A DNA stretch of 64,000 bases from Deltaproteobacteria bacterium (GTDB lineage: Bacteria; Desulfobacterota; DSM-4660; Desulfatiglandales; HGW-15): assembly GCA_016931115.1 (NCBI GenBank), contig JAFGFM010000080.1:7577-71576 (forward strand), read 5' to 3'. Shown here piece after piece: positions 34,889 to 46,182 of this stretch (position 1 is the stretch's first letter; each line of letters opens with the position of its first letter). The translations under genes were made by a program, and so were the position numbers. Under the pieces are notes generated by a model. That model ran no database searches. It worked only from the letters and a program-made list of their open reading frames with translations, and was not told where the DNA came from.

Positions 34889-36172
34889 ATGAAAGATGTT
34901 GTAATTGTATCAAGTGTCAGGACAGCGGTAGGAACTTTTGGCGGAACACTTAAGGACATTCCAGTGGTGGATCTGGGAGCAACAGTTCTTAAAGAGGCTC
35001 TTAAAAGGGTTAACCTTAAGCCTGTTGCCTCAAAGGAACTTTTAGGTTTTGAACCTGATGCCCTCAAGGGAAAGGGTATAATTGAACTTGAGAAAAAGGC
35101 ATATGATTACCCTGAATCTGCAAGGCCGATTCAGATTGATGAAGTTATAATGGGTAATGTTGTTGCAGCAGGACAGGGCCAGAACACTGCCCGCCAGGCC
35201 ATGATCAAGGCCGGTATATCCAAAGAGACATCTGCATTTACAATAAACAAGGTGTGTGCCTCCGGTATGAAGGCGGTAGCCCTTGCAGCCCAGGTCATAA
35301 AGGCCGGTGATGCAGATATAATTCTTGCCGGTGGTATGGAAAACATGAGCATGGTCCCATACGGGCTTCCAGCTGCCAGATGGGGCGCTCGCATGAATAA
35401 TGCCGAGATGATTGACCTTATGGTATTTGACGGCCTGTTTGAGATCTTTTACGGCTACCACATGGGCATAACAGCAGAAAATATCGCTGAAAAGATGGGG
35501 ATATCCAGACAGGAACAGGATGAACTCGGTGCATTGAGCCATAAAAGGGCGCTTGCTGCTATTACTGGCGGTCTTTTCAAGGATGAGATAGTGCCTATTA
35601 TGATCCCCCAGAAAAAGGGGGACCCGATTGCCTTTGCTACTGATGAAAGGCCCATGGAAACCAGCGTGGAAAAGATGGCAAAGCTGAAACCCGCATTCAA
35701 AAAAGATGGGACAATAACCGCAGGAAACGCATCAGGTATTAATGACGCAGCAGCAGCAATGCTGGTTATGTCAGCGGACAAGGCAAAGGAATTAGGTTTA
35801 AAACCGCTCGTGAGGATTAAATCATATGCCACAGCAGGTATAGACCCCGCTTACATGGGCCTGGGCCCTGTACCGGCAGTAAGAAAAATATTGGCAAAAG
35901 ATAAATTATCCATCAATGACTTCGGTACAATAGAGCTTAATGAGGCCTTTGCATCACAGGCAATAGGCTGTATGAGAGAGCTCAAATGCGACCCCGCCAA
36001 AGTTAACCTTGTTGGAAGCGGAATCTCAATAGGTCACCCAATAGGGGCATCAGGTGCAAGGCTCCTTGTTTCGCTTATCAGCCAGATGAAAAGAAAAGGT
36101 GACGCCCTTGGCCTGGGAAGCCTCTGCATAGGCGGCGGACAGGGTATTGCTATGGTGCTGGAACAGGTATAA
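34889..36172 (+). CDS. acetyl-CoA C-acetyltransferase (thiolase)
   Basis: INKVCASGM, ELNEAF, GHPIGASG, LCIGGGQG. Confidence 0.95.
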   Translation: MKDVVIVSSVRTAVGTFGGTLKDIPVVDLGATVLKEALKRVNLKPVASKELLGFEPDALKGKGIIELEKKAYDYPESARPIQIDEVIMGNVVAAGQGQNTARQAMIKAGISKETSAFTINKVCASGMKAVALAAQVIKAGDADIILAGGMENMSMVPYGLPAARWGARMNNAEMIDLMVFDGLFEIFYGYHMGITAENIAEKMGISRQEQDELGALSHKRALAAITGGLFKDEIVPIMIPQKKGDPIAFATDERPMETSVEKMAKLKPAFKKDGTITAGNASGINDAAAAMLVMSADKAKELGLKPLVRIKSYATAGIDPAYMGLGPVPAVRKILAKDKLSINDFGTIELNEAFASQAIGCMRELKCDPAKVNLVGSGISIGHPIGASGARLLVSLISQMKRKGDALGLGSLCIGGGQGIAMVLEQV

Positions 36173-36177
36173 AATTA

Positions 36178-36219
36178 AAGGTTCAAGGTTCAAGGTTTAA
36201 GGTTTAAGGTTTAAGGTTT
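36178..36219. repeat. heptamer tandem repeat (AAGGTTY)6
   Basis: Two aaggttc units then four aaggttt units. Confidence 0.9.
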
Positions 36220-36227
36220 ATAATGAT

Positions 36228-36260
36228 AGAGGCCCTGAATTCAGGGCCTCTTTTATTTTT
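36228..36260 (+). terminator. intrinsic terminator
   Basis: agaggccctg-aatt-cagggcctct followed by a T-rich run. Confidence 0.85.
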
Positions 36261-36317
36261 TCCGCCCTACAGGCGGGTTAAAAGGCAGAGGAATACAGCG
36301 TGTACAGAAAATAAACC

Positions 36318-36347
36318 TTGCACACGTTAAAAGGCTTGTGGTAAGCT
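36318..36347 (+). promoter_or_regulatory. sigma70 promoter for the leader-aroF-tyrA transcript
   Basis: TTGCAC-18 nt-TAAGCT with an extended -10 TG. Confidence 0.55.
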
Positions 36348-36385
36348 TCTGTAAAAATATAATAGATTATAACAGGAATCAACAA

Positions 36386-36463
36386 ATGAAAAACTTTTCA
36401 GGCAGAACAAACAGCTACGATTACTATTATTACTACGCCTTTGGTCTGCCTGCAGCCGGTTGA
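36386..36463 (+). CDS. tyrosine-rich attenuator leader peptide MKNFSGRTNSYDYYYYYAFGLPAAG
   Basis: 25 codons, six Tyr in seven positions, agga RBS. Not in the ORF track. Confidence 0.85.
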   Translation: MKNFSGRTNSYDYYYYYAFGLPAAG

Positions 36464-36526
36464 TTCAGTCTTAATAATTTTCGATTCAAAAAGCTGCAGG
36501 AAGAACCTTCCTGCGGCTTTTTTTTT
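36399..36526 (+). promoter_or_regulatory. transcription attenuator (1:2, 2:3 and 3:4 stems)
   Basis: 1:2 caggcaga/tctgcctg. 2:3 cctgcagc/gctgcagg. 3:4 aagctgcaggaag-aac-cttcctgcggctt plus a T run. Confidence 0.85.
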
Positions 36527-36538
36527 GGAGGTAATACC

Positions 36539-37612
36539 TTGGAAAAGATAACTGATATTTATGTCGAGTCATATACCCCTATCCTTCCTCCTGATACGTT
36601 TATCATGGAGCTACCCATTACTCAAAACGCTATTGATACGGTCAGCTCTTCAAGAAAAGCAATCAGGGATATACTGGATAAAAAAGATAAAAGGCTCATG
36701 GTGATAACCGGCCCCTGTTCAATACATGACAGGGATTCAGCCATAGAATATGCAAGCAGGCTGAAGGCCCTTGCAAAAAAGGTTGAATCCAGGTTTTTTA
36801 TTATCATGAGGGTCTATTTTGAAAAACCGCGTACAAACATCGGCTGGAAAGGTTTAATAAATGACCCATGCCTTGACGGGTCATGTGACATAGAATCAGG
36901 CCTGAGAGCGGCCAGAAAGCTGCTTCTTCAAATAACTGAAATGGGTGTGCCTGCAGCAACAGAGATGCTCGATACAATAAGCCCCCAGTATATTGCAGAC
37001 CTGATATCATGGAGCGCAATCGGTGCAAGGACAACAGAGTCCCAGACCCACAGGGAGATGGTTAGCGGGCTTTCCATGCCTGTGGGCCTTAAAAACGGCA
37101 CAGACGGGGATTTAATGATTGCAGTTAATGGCATGAAGGCATCTGCAAGCCCTCAGACATTTATCGGTATTGACAGCACAGGAAGGGCCAGCATTGTTAA
37201 AACAAAGGGAAACCCCTATACGCATATCGTATTAAGAGGAGGCATGCGCCCCAACTATGACTCTGTGAGCGTTAACAGCACCATTACCCTTTTAAAGAAA
37301 AATAACCTGCGTGATTCCATAATAATAGACTGCTCACATGGGAATTCATCAAAGGATTACCTGATGCAGCCAGGGGTATGGCAGGATGTGATCAACCAGC
37401 GCATGGACGGAAATGCATCCATAACAGGGCTCATGCTTGAGAGCAATATCAATGAGGGCAGTCAGTCTGTTGGTGAGACACCTGAGAATATCAGATACGG
37501 GGTATCAATCACCGATGCATGTATATCATGGGAGATGACTGAGGAGTTAATAGTATCCACATTTAACTACCTGGAGCAGCATTCAGGTAATCGTAAAAGG
37601 TTTAAAATTTAA
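36539..37612 (+). CDS. aroF: class I DAHP synthase
   Basis: ITGPCSIHD, MRVYFEKPRT, IGARTTESQTHRE, IDCSHGNS, SITDAC. TTG start with ggagg RBS. Confidence 0.95.
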   Translation: MEKITDIYVESYTPILPPDTFIMELPITQNAIDTVSSSRKAIRDILDKKDKRLMVITGPCSIHDRDSAIEYASRLKALAKKVESRFFIIMRVYFEKPRTNIGWKGLINDPCLDGSCDIESGLRAARKLLLQITEMGVPAATEMLDTISPQYIADLISWSAIGARTTESQTHREMVSGLSMPVGLKNGTDGDLMIAVNGMKASASPQTFIGIDSTGRASIVKTKGNPYTHIVLRGGMRPNYDSVSVNSTITLLKKNNLRDSIIIDCSHGNSSKDYLMQPGVWQDVINQRMDGNASITGLMLESNINEGSQSVGETPENIRYGVSITDACISWEMTEELIVSTFNYLEQHSGNRKRFKI

Positions 37613-38760
37613 TGAGTGGGGCAACTATGGATAATCAAACCACAAATGAACTGGAAAAATCACGGGACAGGATTGACGTGATTGATTCAAAGATAATTGA
37701 TCTCCTGACAGAAAGACAGGCTGAGGTCGAGAAGGTTATTGAATATAAGAAATTAAACAATATGCCTGTCCGCCACCCTGCAAGAGAAGAGGACATGATA
37801 TCAAGGCGAAGGGCATTGGCAAAGGAAAAGGGGCTTGACCCAGATTACGTAGAGGAGCTGTTCAGGTCGCTCCTGCGCCAGTCGCGTGTTGAGCAGACAG
37901 AATCAAAATCTGAGAAGGGTGTAAAAGCTGATGCCACCGTTCTTTTTGTTGGTGGTAAAGGCGGCATGGGCAGATATTTTGCCCAGTGGTTTAATAAATC
38001 AGGATACAACACAAGGGTGCTCGGACGTAACGACTGGGATAATGTGGAGTCTTTATGCGATGGAGTTGATCTTGCTATTGTGAGCGTCCCTATTGAGAGC
38101 ACTTTATCTGTTATAGAAAGGCTTACGCCATACCTGCCCAAAAATGCTGTTCTGGCTGATCTTACCAGCATCAAAAAAGAGCCTGTGAATGCAATGATGA
38201 GCATGCATAAAGGCCCTGTACTCGGGATACACCCTCTGTTCGGGCCTTCAACATCCAGCATGGATAAGCAGATAATTGTTGTAACACCGGGGAGAGATGA
38301 AGGGTCATGCAAATGGGTCATTGATCAGATCTCAGAGTGGGGGGCCATTACAGTAAGATCCAGTGGAGAAGAGCATGACAGGATCATGGCAGTTGTGCAG
38401 GCATTAAGACACTTTGCCACATTTACATTTGGTAGGTTTTTATTCAGGGAGAATGTTGACCTGTTCCGCTCACTGGAGTTTTCAAGCCCTATATACCGGC
38501 TTGAGCTTGGCATGGTGGGCCGTCTTTTTGCCCAGGCACCTGACCTCTATTCAGGGATTATCTTTGCATCTGATGAGAGACGCTCAATGCTCAGGGAATA
38601 TATCTCTTCAATAACCGAGTTGATCAGTATGGTAGAAGCGTCTAACAAGGAGGAGTTTGAACGAGAGTTTAAGGAGATCGCCAAATGGTTCGGGCCATTC
38701 AGTGAACAGGCAATGAGAGAAAGCAGCTTTCTGATAGATAAGCTAATTGAGAGGTTTTGA
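37612..38760 (+). CDS. tyrA: bifunctional chorismate mutase/prephenate dehydrogenase
   Basis: CM domain RDRIDVID...RQ. PDH motifs GGKGGMG, DLTSIK, HPLFGP, HDRIMAVVQALRH. Confidence 0.93.
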   Translation: MSGATMDNQTTNELEKSRDRIDVIDSKIIDLLTERQAEVEKVIEYKKLNNMPVRHPAREEDMISRRRALAKEKGLDPDYVEELFRSLLRQSRVEQTESKSEKGVKADATVLFVGGKGGMGRYFAQWFNKSGYNTRVLGRNDWDNVESLCDGVDLAIVSVPIESTLSVIERLTPYLPKNAVLADLTSIKKEPVNAMMSMHKGPVLGIHPLFGPSTSSMDKQIIVVTPGRDEGSCKWVIDQISEWGAITVRSSGEEHDRIMAVVQALRHFATFTFGRFLFRENVDLFRSLEFSSPIYRLELGMVGRLFAQAPDLYSGIIFASDERRSMLREYISSITELISMVEASNKEEFEREFKEIAKWFGPFSEQAMRESSFLIDKLIERF

Positions 38761-38834: not shown

Positions 38835-39515
38835 ATGTCATTTATCTATATTCTAGTTTCATTACAAGAACATCTCCACATTCCATTAATTCCAAAAGAG
38901 GGAAATAAATGCAAAAAACAGGTGAAACACTCAGGGCTGAAAGGGAAAAGAGGATCAATGATGGATATGTACCGACGCCCTGATAAACTACTTAAGGCCA
39001 TTGACAAGGCCAGAAATATTACACTCAAGGCATGCATACAGGCTGCTGAACTCACAGGCGGCAAGGTCATCATGCTGCCTTTGCACAGGGGCTCGGACGG
39101 GTTCATGTCTATTAAACAGTTTGAGACCTTTTACTGGCCCCAGTTAAAGGGCCTGTTGCTTGACATGATTGATGCCGGGTTAACACCTGCCCCATTCTAT
39201 GAAGGGGTATGGGATAACCGCCTACACTATTTGAGAGAGCTGCCAAAAGGGAAGACAAGGGGCTCCTTTCAGAATACGAATATGTTCAAGGCAAAGGAGA
39301 TAATAGGTAATATCATGTGCCTCACAGGCGGGTTCCCTGTATCGCTTTTACAGGCAGGCACACCTGAAAAGATGCGTGAACAGAAAAAAAGGATGGGTGA
39401 AACAGTGGGTAAAAACGGCGGTTTTATTATGGCCGCAGGGTCGGCCATGGATTACTGCGATAAAGAACTTGTAAAAGTATGGGTGGAACCCACTAAGGAG
39501 TTTGGGAAATACTGA
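38835..39515 (+). pseudogene. N-terminally truncated uroporphyrinogen decarboxylase (UroD/MetE-like) family fragment
   Basis: From ~LKGKRGSMMDMYRRPDKLL through PLHRGSDGFMS..QFETFYWP and GKNGGFI it matches the C-terminal half of the family. The first ~35 aa look like junk. Confidence 0.65.
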
Positions 39516-44268: not shown

Positions 44269-45501
44269 TTATTCATCCCTCAATGCAACAATAGGTTTGA
44301 TTCGGGCCGCCCTTCGGGCCGGGAAAAACCCTGCGAGCAGACCTGCTGCTATCAAAAAGAGAGTTGCAGTAACAGCGATCCTTATGTCAGCCTCCGGGTT
44401 ATAAAAATATTCGTTTGCAGGCATTTTTGTCCTTATGAGTTCAAGCAGGCCTGTTCCTAAAAGAAGTCCAATAAATCCTGACAGGGATGTGATAAGTATA
44501 GACTCCTGCATGATCATCCCTATAATTGAACGGGGCCTCGCACCCAGCGCCTTTCTTATCCCTATCTCCCTGGTGCGCTCCTTTACCACTATGGTCATGA
44601 TATTACTCACCCCTACTATACCTGCCACAATGGTCATGATGCCTATTACCCATACAAACATCCTTATTGAGTTAATGATGGTCATGTACCTGCCCGCCTG
44701 CTCCACGCTGTTGGATATATAAATTGCCCTGTCATCTTCAGGATCAAAGTTGTGTATCCCTGATAACACAGAGCGGATCTTTTTCTCGATCTCCACAGAT
44801 TCCTTAACAGATGAGGAGTCAGGAATAGTGAGGCAGAGATTCGATATGTTTTTTTTCCCGCCGCATATTAACTGGGCCGTTGTGATCGGTAGGGCGACAA
44901 CCTGATTGTTATTCTGATCCTTGTCTTTACATACGCCTATAACCCTTACATAAAAGCCGTTGACAATAATATATTCACCAACCGCCTCTTTGTGATTGAA
45001 AAGCTCTTTTTTAACCTCCTCGGTAATTACAGCGACCTTTCTTTTCTGTAAAACATCAAGGTTATTAATAGATCGTCCTTGGATAATATCCACTTTATCT
45101 ATTGCCAGATAATCGGAATGCACTGAAATAACCTGATATTTAAGTGACTTTCCTTTATATGCCACATAATTCTGGCCAGGCAGGTAAAAACGGGACGATA
45201 TGAGTTCCACTTCAGGTATATTCTTTTTAATCTGCTCATAATCCTCATTGGTAAGCCTGGTATATCTTCCGGGTTTAAGCCCTTTATAGGGTTTTGTGGT
45301 CTTGCCTCCCCATATCCACATGCTGTTTATAAGGGAGTTTGAAAAACCCTTTCTCATGGCATTTTCAAAACCGTTTCCGGCTCCAAGAAGAATAATCAGC
45401 ATAAAAATACCCCAGGCCACACTGAAACCTGTCAGAACAGCCCTGAGCCTGTTTTTACCAAGGATGCTGAATATCTCCTGCCAGGAGTCAAGGTCAAGCA
45501 T
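44269..45501 (-). CDS. MacB/FtsX-type ABC permease
   Basis: RAVLTGFSVAWGI, VKERTREIGIRKALGA. Confidence 0.92.
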   Translation of the reverse strand: MLDLDSWQEIFSILGKNRLRAVLTGFSVAWGIFMLIILLGAGNGFENAMRKGFSNSLINSMWIWGGKTTKPYKGLKPGRYTRLTNEDYEQIKKNIPEVELISSRFYLPGQNYVAYKGKSLKYQVISVHSDYLAIDKVDIIQGRSINNLDVLQKRKVAVITEEVKKELFNHKEAVGEYIIVNGFYVRVIGVCKDKDQNNNQVVALPITTAQLICGGKKNISNLCLTIPDSSSVKESVEIEKKIRSVLSGIHNFDPEDDRAIYISNSVEQAGRYMTIINSIRMFVWVIGIMTIVAGIVGVSNIMTIVVKERTREIGIRKALGARPRSIIGMIMQESILITSLSGFIGLLLGTGLLELIRTKMPANEYFYNPEADIRIAVTATLFLIAAGLLAGFFPARRAARIKPIVALRDE

Positions 45502-45504
45502 AAT

Positions 45505-46182
45505 CTACCCCTGATCCCCCTGTTCTTCAATAAGCCCGTCTTTCAGTCTTATGATCCTTTTTGTCATGCGGGATACATCCCCTTCATGGGTAACAATAAT
45601 TATGGTTACCCCTTCATCAGAATTTATCTCCTGAAGGAGCTTCATTACCTCAAGGGATGTGGCGCTGTCGAGTGCACCGGTAGGCTCATCAGCCACTATT
45701 ACCCTGGGCTTTGTAATCATTGCACGGGCAATGGCTATCCTCTGTTTCTGTCCGCCAGAGAGCTCATTAGGCGTATGATCAGCCCAATCCTTAAGCCCAA
45801 GCCTGTCAAGATACTCCATGGCCAGTATGTTGCGTTTTTTTCTGCCGATGTTCTGGTAATAGAGTGGAAGGGCCACGTTTTCCATGGCGTTCTTAAAGCT
45901 GATCAGGTTGAATGACTGAAATACAAATCCGATCATCCTGTTCCTGAAATAGGCCGCCTTTTTTTCATCAAGGTTCAATACATGGGTCCCGCCCAGCCAG
46001 TATGCCCCTGTATCATAATTATCAAGTATGCCAATTATGTTAAGGAGTGTGGATTTACCTGAACCTGATGACCCCATAATGGAGACAAACTCTCCCGCCT
46101 CTATATGAAGGTTTATACCCTTAAGAACATGAAGCGGGCTGCCATTGAAATATGTCTTATGTAAATTTTCCAGTTTTATCAT
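45505..46182 (-). CDS. ABC ATP-binding protein (LolD/MacB type)
   Basis: GSSGSGKST, LSGGQKQR, ADEPTGALD. ATG 46182 is preferred. Confidence 0.93.
   Translation of the reverse strand: MIKLENLHKTYFNGSPLHVLKGINLHIEAGEFVSIMGSSGSGKSTLLNIIGILDNYDTGAYWLGGTHVLNLDEKKAAYFRNRMIGFVFQSFNLISFKNAMENVALPLYYQNIGRKKRNILAMEYLDRLGLKDWADHTPNELSGGQKQRIAIARAMITKPRVIVADEPTGALDSATSLEVMKLLQEINSDEGVTIIIVTHEGDVSRMTKRIIRLKDGLIEEQGDQG

Follow-up and report, generated by a model that had tools for sequence, protein, structure and literature searches.

A putative tyrosine-sensing leader-peptide attenuator upstream of aroF-tyrA in a Desulfatiglans-type sulfate reducer

Leader-peptide attenuators are textbook regulators for Trp, Phe, His, Leu, Thr, and Ile/Val. 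In Escherichia coli, the aroF-tyrA operon is instead controlled by the TyrR repressor, while T-boxes are the usual Tyr-responsive RNA control in Firmicutes. Here, we describe an element upstream of aroF-tyrA that appears to be an attenuator of the classical kind with Tyr as its effector. It lies in a 64,000-nucleotide stretch of DNA from a Desulfatiglans-type sulfate reducer (assembly GCA_016931115.1, contig JAFGFM010000080.1, positions 7,577 to 71,576); we call this whole stretch the window and number positions from its first letter.

Published accounts attribute Tyr control to TyrR or to T-boxes (PMC1262725; PMC3223726). Leader-peptide control of aroF appears in the searchable literature in two cases only. 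In Corynebacterium glutamicum, the aroR leader (Phe-Tyr-Phe) upstream of aroF responded to Phe, not Tyr, limitation, according to the summary of Neshat et al. 2014 in PMC11802643. In Acholeplasma, the uORFC-13-1 motif upstream of aroF combines a predicted upstream open reading frame (ORF) with a terminator, and attenuation has been proposed for it (PMC8632094). No Tyr-specific leader-peptide attenuator was found in the searchable full-text literature, although absence there is no proof of absence overall, and Rfam has no Tyr leader family. The original prediction for this locus, made from the sequence, stated that Tyr leaders had been predicted in a few Gammaproteobacteria such as Shewanella. 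That statement is not borne out by the two Shewanella sources. One lists only an aroF 5' untranslated region and cites a 1980 E. coli hypothesis (PMC2659441; Camakaris et al. 1980), and the other, a regulon reconstruction, restricts its attenuators to branched-chain amino acids, His, Thr, Trp, and Phe (PMC3223726).

Anatomy and predicted folding of the leader

Judged from its sequence and that of its relatives, the leader with its hairpins upstream of aroF-tyrA is, at a probability of about 0.86, a classical ribosome-mediated leader-peptide attenuator that senses charged tRNA-Tyr. Its identity as an attenuator seems almost certain, and the amino acid sensed is almost certainly Tyr. A promoter, a 25-amino acid leader, three mutually exclusive pairings, a terminator, aroF, and tyrA are all present, almost base for base as originally predicted. 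The further claim, that aroF-tyrA is under Tyr-sensing attenuation with the logic of the trp, phe, and his operons, is well supported by this anatomy and by the comparative evidence below.

All features are on the plus strand. The promoter (36318-36347) comprises a -35 element TTGCAC (36318-36323), an 18-nt spacer, and an extended -10 element TGgTAAGCT (36339-36347; TGn at 36339-36341, TAAGCT at 36342-36347), with a predicted transcription start at about 36354. It was absent from the list returned by a generic promoter scan. A Shine-Dalgarno (SD) sequence, AGGA (36374-36377), lies 8 nt upstream of the ATG at 36386, which opens a leader ORF of 25 codons plus TGA (36386-36463, stop at 36461-36463). 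Its product is MKNFSGRTNSYDYYYYYAFGLPAAG, the frame is confirmed by the ORF list, and the ORF ends 75 nt upstream of aroF.

The regulatory codon run (36416-36436) reads TAC GAT TAC TAT TAT TAC TAC, or Y D Y Y Y Y Y. Six Tyr codons (36416-36418 and 36422-36436) are thus separated by one Asp codon (GAT, 36419-36421). Tyr accounts for 24% of the leader codons compared with 2.1% in three neighbouring genes (25/1169). We scanned the whole 5.18-Mb genome for short ORFs with at least five identical residues in seven, followed by a hairpin and a T-run; for Tyr, the leader was the only match.

Three helices are predicted for the transcript, and they are mutually exclusive. Segment 1 (36399-36406, CAGGCAGA) pairs with 36445-36452 of segment 2 (36445-36456) to give helix 1:2, with a short extension (-15.2 kcal/mol). 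Helix 2:3, the antiterminator, joins 36449-36456 to 36493-36500 of segment 3, with three flanking pairs (36445-36447 with 36502-36505; -21.3 kcal/mol). Helix 3:4, the terminator, pairs the whole of segment 3 (36488-36503) with 36507-36522 (-23.6 kcal/mol) in a 16-bp stem of 11 G+C-rich pairs plus A-U pairs, a stem that is found in all relatives. Segment 4 and its U-run together occupy 36507-36526 and end in nine U (36518-36526). Pairing 2:3 would exclude the terminator, just as pairing 1:2 would exclude the antiterminator. The leader stop codon sits 30 nt upstream of segment 3. Folded with ViennaRNA, the region 36360-36545 forms the 1:2 hairpin, which encloses the Tyr codons, and the long terminator hairpin, at -56.2 kcal/mol (z = -5.6; 0/200 shuffles equally stable).

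From this anatomy, and taking the usual ribosome footprint, we infer how translation of the leader would govern the operon. Once transcription has begun, a ribosome would start on the 25-codon leader. With Tyr-tRNA plentiful, it would reach the TGA at 36461 and cover about 36446-36474, that is, all of segment 2; helix 3:4 would form and RNA polymerase would terminate in the U-run. If the leader were not translated, helices 1:2 and 3:4 would form, and termination would follow too. With Tyr-tRNA scarce, the ribosome would stall on the Tyr codons and block helix 1:2, covering segment 1 or the 5' part of segment 2. The stretch 36449-36456 would stay exposed and could pair with 36493-36500 ahead of the synthesis of segment 4. 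Formation of 2:3 would then preclude the terminator, and aroF-tyrA would be transcribed. The operon is most likely switched on when charged Tyr-tRNA runs short.

Covariance models of known leaders do not describe the element. No Rfam family reached its threshold, neither over the whole window at gathering cut-offs nor on 36200-36600 at E <= 10. The best Rfam scores for the leader were 18.0 bits (Thr_leader) and 14.9 bits (Phe_leader), where the gathering scores are 55. The T-box covariance model had zero matches at the leader even at E <= 10.

The genes downstream belong to Tyr synthesis. The first, aroF (36539-37612), encodes a type I-alpha 3-deoxy-D-arabino-heptulosonate 7-phosphate (DAHP) synthase, with an SD sequence GGAGG (36527-36531) and a TTG start whose aligned codon is ATG in the more distant members of the genus. 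It scores 507 bits against the NCBIfam model PRK12755 (cut-off 343) and falls below the cut-offs of the AroG and AroH models. Its best solved relative is the Tyr-sensitive AroF of E. coli (418.6 bits), ahead of the Neisseria meningitidis enzyme (374) and E. coli AroG (361). Furthermore, where AroG has Ser211 and AroH likewise has Ser, the window AroF and E. coli AroF both carry Gly, a residue reported to mark Tyr-regulated isozymes (Hartmann et al. 2003). Assignment to the AroF-type, probably Tyr-sensitive class fits the Tyr specificity proposed for the leader. The second gene, tyrA (37612-38760), overlaps the aroF stop with its start and encodes a fused chorismate mutase/prephenate dehydrogenase (T-protein; PRK11199, 445 bits, cut-off 273, residues 11-379, spanning both domains). 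Its best solved relative is the Haemophilus influenzae T-protein 2PV7.

The neighbouring genes that could be identified are GreA, a thiolase, aroF, tyrA, a fragment resembling uroporphyrinogen decarboxylase (URO-D), and a flavin mononucleotide (FMN) reductase. The thiolase gene (34889-36172) lies upstream and has its own terminator (36228-36251); therefore, the leader begins a separate transcription unit. Between the thiolase stop codon and this terminator, 36178-36220 holds a tandem array of a 7-nt unit, AAGGTTT/C, in six copies. Heptamer arrays of other sequence occur at the equivalent place in one genus member (G004) and upstream of the Desulfococcus leader (L010). Downstream of tyrA, a 226-amino acid ORF (38835-39515) matches only the C-terminal half of URO-D (profile positions 160-326 of 346) and may be a truncated gene. 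In another genus member (G007), an in-frame peptide just upstream of the leader resembles, by eye only, the C-terminus of the URO-D family, which would suggest rearrangement around the operon.

Leader relatives within and beyond the genus

We examined 41 related genomes. Type I-alpha AroF is encoded in 9 of the 11 genomes of the same genus and in none of the other 30, which represent further genera of the family and order. The original prediction had called for a search for Tyr leaders in relatives, and this search found a homologous leader with six to seven consecutive Tyr codons in all nine aroF-bearing genus genomes (for example, MSNFSGRTNRYYYYYYYTCSLPAAS). The upstream neighbour varies among these genomes, and the leader is always upstream of aroF. 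A TTGCA-N17/18-TGnTAnnCT promoter is kept in eight of the nine copies in aligned rows; the ninth (G001) has a matching promoter, TTGCAA/TGATACGCT, read in its locus. That same genome (L007/L045) has about 90 nt extra between terminator and aroF, with a perfect long hairpin (GGTCTTTGATAATGCATAATTGCATTATCAAAGACC) that the other genus members lack.

Compared with the window, the genus copies are 83-96% identical in the leader ORF and 85-100% in the terminator. The corresponding ranges are 72-87% for the aroF coding sequence, 47-73% for aroF third codon positions, and 42-83% for the spacer that separates the leader stop from the terminator. Conservation is thus higher in the leader ORF and terminator than in aroF, a pattern that indicates selection on the functional parts. 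All three alternative helices are predicted in eight of the nine copies, and 2:3 in all nine; the remaining copy (G003) keeps the same pairs in the alignment.

To the nine genus copies we added two outgroups, a Thermodesulfobacteriota single-cell genome (L035) and a Desulfobacteraceae metagenome-assembled genome (MAG; L036). Across these 11 sequences, the G and A columns of the leader SD sequence are invariant or nearly so, and the ATG is also conserved. Cells of helix 2:3 are paired in 98% of cases, compared with 15-55% when partner columns are slid, and those of 3:4 in 94%, compared with 38-63%. Column 134, in segment 3, changes in step with both of its partners (A-U, G-U, and G-C in 2:3; U-G, U-A, and C-G in 3:4). 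These changes are consistent with both pairings, each resting on single events. The order of synonymous Tyr codons, TAT TAT TAC TAT TAT TAC TAC, is near-identical across genomes, even in the two outgroups, and this is so in genomes whose aroF third positions are about 50% identical.

The leader belongs to a wider family. A scan of one genome per species (185,579 species) with the pattern CAGGC-N6-24-(TAY)4-N3-24-TCTGCCTG returned 33 loci, of which about 25 are credible leaders. These carry the labels Desulfatiglans/Desulfatiglandales, Desulfobacteraceae, Desulfobacterales, Desulfobacterium sp. N47, Desulfonema limicola, and Thermodesulfobacteriota, or the broader labels "delta proteobacterium", "Proteobacteria bacterium", "Pseudomonadota bacterium", and "bacterium"; none of them is labelled as a clearly different phylum. 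The original prediction had regarded the leader as notable in a Desulfobacterota-like genome, a view that this spread of the family through Desulfobacterota does not support. The other eight matches lack a start codon or a terminator, and we rejected them as probable chance matches, their number fitting the chance estimate. Their hosts are Firmicutes, Spirochaetales, Desmonostoc, Flavobacteriales, Sporocytophaga, Thioalkalispiraceae, Methanosarcinales, and Hydrogenedens.

Together with loci reached via AroF homologues, the scan loci fall into three leader classes. Poly-Tyr leaders (for example, MAHLSGKGNRYYYYYYTCGLPAAP and MNIISGRNNRYYYYYYYTCSLPVAR) have aroF-tyrA or tyrA directly downstream, and all 11 poly-Tyr lineages with known downstream genes precede tyrA-containing operons. 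Mixed Phe/Tyr leaders (for example, MNKFTGSFFGFYYYYFSTGLPVVR) precede genes for a DeoC-family aldolase, a type II dehydroquinate (DHQ) synthase, a chorismate mutase-prephenate dehydratase (CM-PDT), aroE, and aroA. We read the aldolase as an archaeal-type 2-amino-3,7-dideoxy-D-threo-hept-6-ulosonate (ADH) synthase, and the aldolase and DHQ synthase together as an archaeal-type route to dehydroquinate. Mixed Phe/Tyr/Trp leaders, such as MNPYAGSVYYFWFYFYGTARLPGVR in Desulfococcus multivorans and VTQFYAGRNFYFWYYFFTTHLPGVR in Desulfonema limicola, precede aroF-aroB-pheA-type operons. In the alignment, the sequences of segments 1 and 2 are common to all leaders, and the codon run is the main difference. 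By these gene assignments the codon run tracks the operon: poly-Tyr runs go with tyrA operons, and mixed Phe/Tyr/Trp runs with DAHP or ADH synthase, DHQ synthase, and pheA or aroE.

Many Desulfobacteraceae copies have a long form of six segments, in which two terminator hairpins stand in tandem and the 2:3 and 4:5 segments are complementary. The long-form loci, from Desulfobacteraceae and Desulfobacterales, are L021, L022, L026, L031, L034, L037, L039, L043, L044, L046, L047, L049, and L052. Long-form mixed Phe/Tyr leaders control operons that open with the DeoC-family aldolase and type II DHQ synthase genes, followed by pheA, aroE, and aroA. The tandem hairpins could be cleanly parsed in 7 of 17 long-form sequences. 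In six of these seven, no more than 5/200 shuffles were as low in energy for the 2:3 and 4:5 duplexes; in the seventh (L052), the figure for 2:3 was 19/200. In another Desulfobacteraceae MAG (L048), two hairpins accompany a leader-like ORF, MAGKTSGGFYYYYYSYVTYVCLGFAME, but the next large ORF, a molybdopterin oxidoreductase, lies 282 nt downstream. An eight-Tyr leader occurs in L023, with its downstream genes beyond the locus end.

Further leaders occur in the window genome itself. Four PF00793 genes are present in the assembly: the window aroF, two for type I-beta DAHP synthases, and one for a 3-deoxy-D-manno-octulosonate 8-phosphate (KDO8P) synthase. On contig C73 (minus strand, about 11939; L053), a Trp leader, MLNKNINNRYWWWRWWRMEEFAVL, with a terminator is directly upstream of a 335-amino acid type I-beta DAHP synthase gene. 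The same leader is kept throughout the genus, and two further genera of the family have it too (L054-L064). On contig C128, in a divergent intergenic region (about 45487-45919), a 23-codon Phe leader on the minus strand, MKQTDTWQVFFFYFFGTRGLPMV, and its terminator precede aroK-aroC-PDT-DAHPS-pheA-aroD, where PDT is prephenate dehydratase and DAHPS is a 280-amino acid type I-beta DAHP synthase. The Phe leader is kept in two relatives (G006 and G007), and its GGCAG/GGUCUGCC scaffold is that of the Tyr leader. On the plus strand of the same contig, a second Trp leader, MCRELLNITNINWWWRTYNGKECPPV, with a terminator lies upstream of the divergent trpE operon. Finally, an Ile-rich leader candidate (MNLFALNPVIGIIIIRAAGIYL at its start) with a terminator, on the plus strand of contig C142 at 6780, lies upstream of a 525-amino acid gene resembling citramalate/2-isopropylmalate synthases.

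With Tyr, Phe, two Trp, and Ile-rich leaders in one genome, this organism seems to rely on ribosome-mediated attenuation as a general strategy. Its three DAHP synthase genes each stand behind their own leader (Tyr, Phe, or Trp), and each appears to be tied to one aromatic amino acid. We lean, by a narrow measure, towards a broader proposal with two parts. First, one scaffold (CAGGCAG, codon run, GGUCUGCCUG, terminator) would have been repeatedly retargeted within Desulfobacterota by swapping the codon run: poly-Tyr for aroF-tyrA or tyrA, poly-Phe for aroK-aroC-pheA, and mixed runs for common-pathway operons. Second, the three DAHP synthases would be wired purely by leader peptides, as an all-RNA counterpart of the E. 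coli AroF/AroG/AroH-TyrR/TrpR system.

Origin of the operon and rival explanations

The original prediction suggested that the leader could reflect transfer of the whole operon. The donors would be Gammaproteobacteria, where a fused T-protein tyrA and a type I-alpha AroF are typical. In keeping with such an import, AroF and TyrA together show the enterobacterial architecture and score above the cut-offs of E. coli-type NCBIfam models. Type I-alpha AroF is also patchy in the phylum (34/301 genomes), in addition to its absence from the 30 other genomes of the family and order. An AroF phylogeny, which had likewise been called for, was built from 17 sequences. It placed the poly-Tyr-associated enzymes in one clade (support 80/99) and left E. 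coli AroF in a polytomy with Desulfobacterotal AroFs, so that the tree does not fix the deep position of the E. coli enzyme. Other evidence, however, points away from Gammaproteobacteria. The nearest AroFs are Desulfobacterotal, at 63-68% identity compared with 53% for E. coli AroF, and TyrA is 73% identical to that of a Thermodesulfobacteriota single-cell genome compared with 42% for E. coli TyrA. Among the species genomes scanned, the leader scaffold occurs only in Desulfobacterota or in records with broader labels, and E. coli aroF has no such leader on inspection. GC content is flat across the operon, with no anomaly.

These nearest relatives, the leader distribution, and the flat GC rule out Gammaproteobacterial import as the likeliest origin, and we consider it improbable. 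Within-phylum transfer into the genus ancestor fits better. The genus ancestor may have acquired the operon and leader, because type I-alpha AroF is patchy in the phylum and confined to the genus within the order. We put it at even odds that both moved from another Desulfobacterotal lineage into that ancestor. Thus, the suggested transfer survives as a plausible older event within the phylum, without its Gammaproteobacterial source.

Several observations weigh against Tyr sensing itself. The single Asp codon breaks the Tyr run of the window; since a close relative in a bioreactor metagenome (run X2) has TAT TAT at 36416-36421 where the window has TAC GAT, it is probably a recent, derived single-base change. 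A consensus terminator scan lists the terminator hairpin on the minus strand only, not the plus strand, presumably because the A-U extension of the stem consumes part of the T-run. Near-invariance of the stems leaves little statistical support from covariation: the genus-only set has no compensatory pairs in 1:2 or 2:3 and one in the terminator, and the set of 11 gives one each in 2:3 and 3:4, with 101/500 shuffles reaching the observed 2:3 value. Codon content does not guarantee the response, since aroR of C. glutamicum, as summarised, answered to Phe rather than Tyr. The sole metatranscriptome of the source study has zero coverage at the leader. The remaining runs consist of DNA contigs, except for a labelled-RNA run whose low-identity coverage is confined to about 150 nt of aroF (37459-37613).

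Three of these points (the silent metatranscriptome, the scarcity of covariation in the stems, and the departure of aroR from its codon content) would also suit a reading in which the Tyr-rich ORF is no Tyr sensor. The hairpins would then be a constitutive terminator or one controlled by a protein or small RNA, or the ORF would sense general translation stress. This is a shade less credible still than Gammaproteobacterial import. The SD sequence and ATG are conserved at proper spacing, the Tyr run is retained in all relatives, and a ribosome terminating at the stop codon would, with the footprint inferred above, cover segment 2. Above all, the identity of the codon run shifts with the products of the downstream operon on a constant RNA scaffold; an element with a purely structural or protein-binding role would leave this shift unexplained.

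It is highly implausible that the ORF encodes a functional Tyr-rich micropeptide, trans-acting like peTrpL of Sinorhizobium meliloti or a peptide precursor, instead of or beside attenuation: trans-acting leader peptides are described in PMC7298713, and the peptide ends (FSGR..., ...GLPAA) are conserved, but those ends coincide with RNA segments 1 and 2, no peptide-maturation enzyme is found among the identified neighbours, and the paralogous Phe leader of the same genome reads the GGCAG core of segment 1 in another frame (TWQ, not SGR), which points to constraint on the RNA rather than the peptide.

Comparison with known systems

The mechanism proposed for the aroF-tyrA leader is of the textbook trp/phe type, and the new part is its Tyr specificity. 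Of greater interest are a modular scaffold with swapped codon runs and a set of three DAHP synthase isozymes under leader control. Confirmation would extend the classical mechanism to all three aromatic amino acids and supply the Tyr member missing from the published attenuator set. The shikimate pathway could then be regulated at its entry step, isozyme by isozyme, through RNA alone. The scaffold, about 170 nt long and naturally modular (the same stems with different codon runs), offers a natural experiment on the evolution of attenuator specificity and is a possible part for Tyr-responsive expression control. Annotation of Desulfobacterota genomes would also improve, as such mini-genes are probably uncalled there.

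The closest parallels in design are pheL-pheA and trpL-trpEDCBA of E. coli (also hisL, leuL, thrL, and ilvL). Like these, the window element has a short leader with a run of end-product codons. It shares with pheL and trpL four segments with the alternatives 1:2, 2:3, and 3:4, an intrinsic terminator immediately upstream of the first structural gene, and a stop codon where a terminating ribosome would cover segment 2. It differs in that it would sense Tyr, in its Desulfobacterotal anaerobic host, and in having no match to an Rfam leader family. The contrast with E. coli aroF lies in the mode of control: that gene has no leader and is under the TyrR repressor, whereas the window aroF-tyrA stands behind a putative leader attenuator.

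Two described leaders of aroF can be set beside it. C. glutamicum aroR, compared here by its description in the summary cited above, is also a ribosome-mediated attenuator with aromatic leader codons upstream of a DAHP synthase gene, and it has experimental support. Its codons are Phe-Tyr-Phe only, whereas the Desulfatiglans-type leaders have six to seven Tyr codons and an operon that includes tyrA. The uORFC-13-1 motif is a different RNA, with Phe codons (a U-run) where the window leader has Tyr codons, and it is limited to Acholeplasma and environmental sequences.

At the level of the pathway, the window genome resembles E. coli, with its AroF-Tyr, AroG-Phe, and AroH-Trp pairs, in that three DAHP synthases are each apparently tied to one aromatic amino acid. 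In E. coli, this is achieved through TyrR, TrpR, and feedback inhibition; in the window genome, three leader peptides would take the place of the repressors, and two of the three isozymes are of type I-beta.

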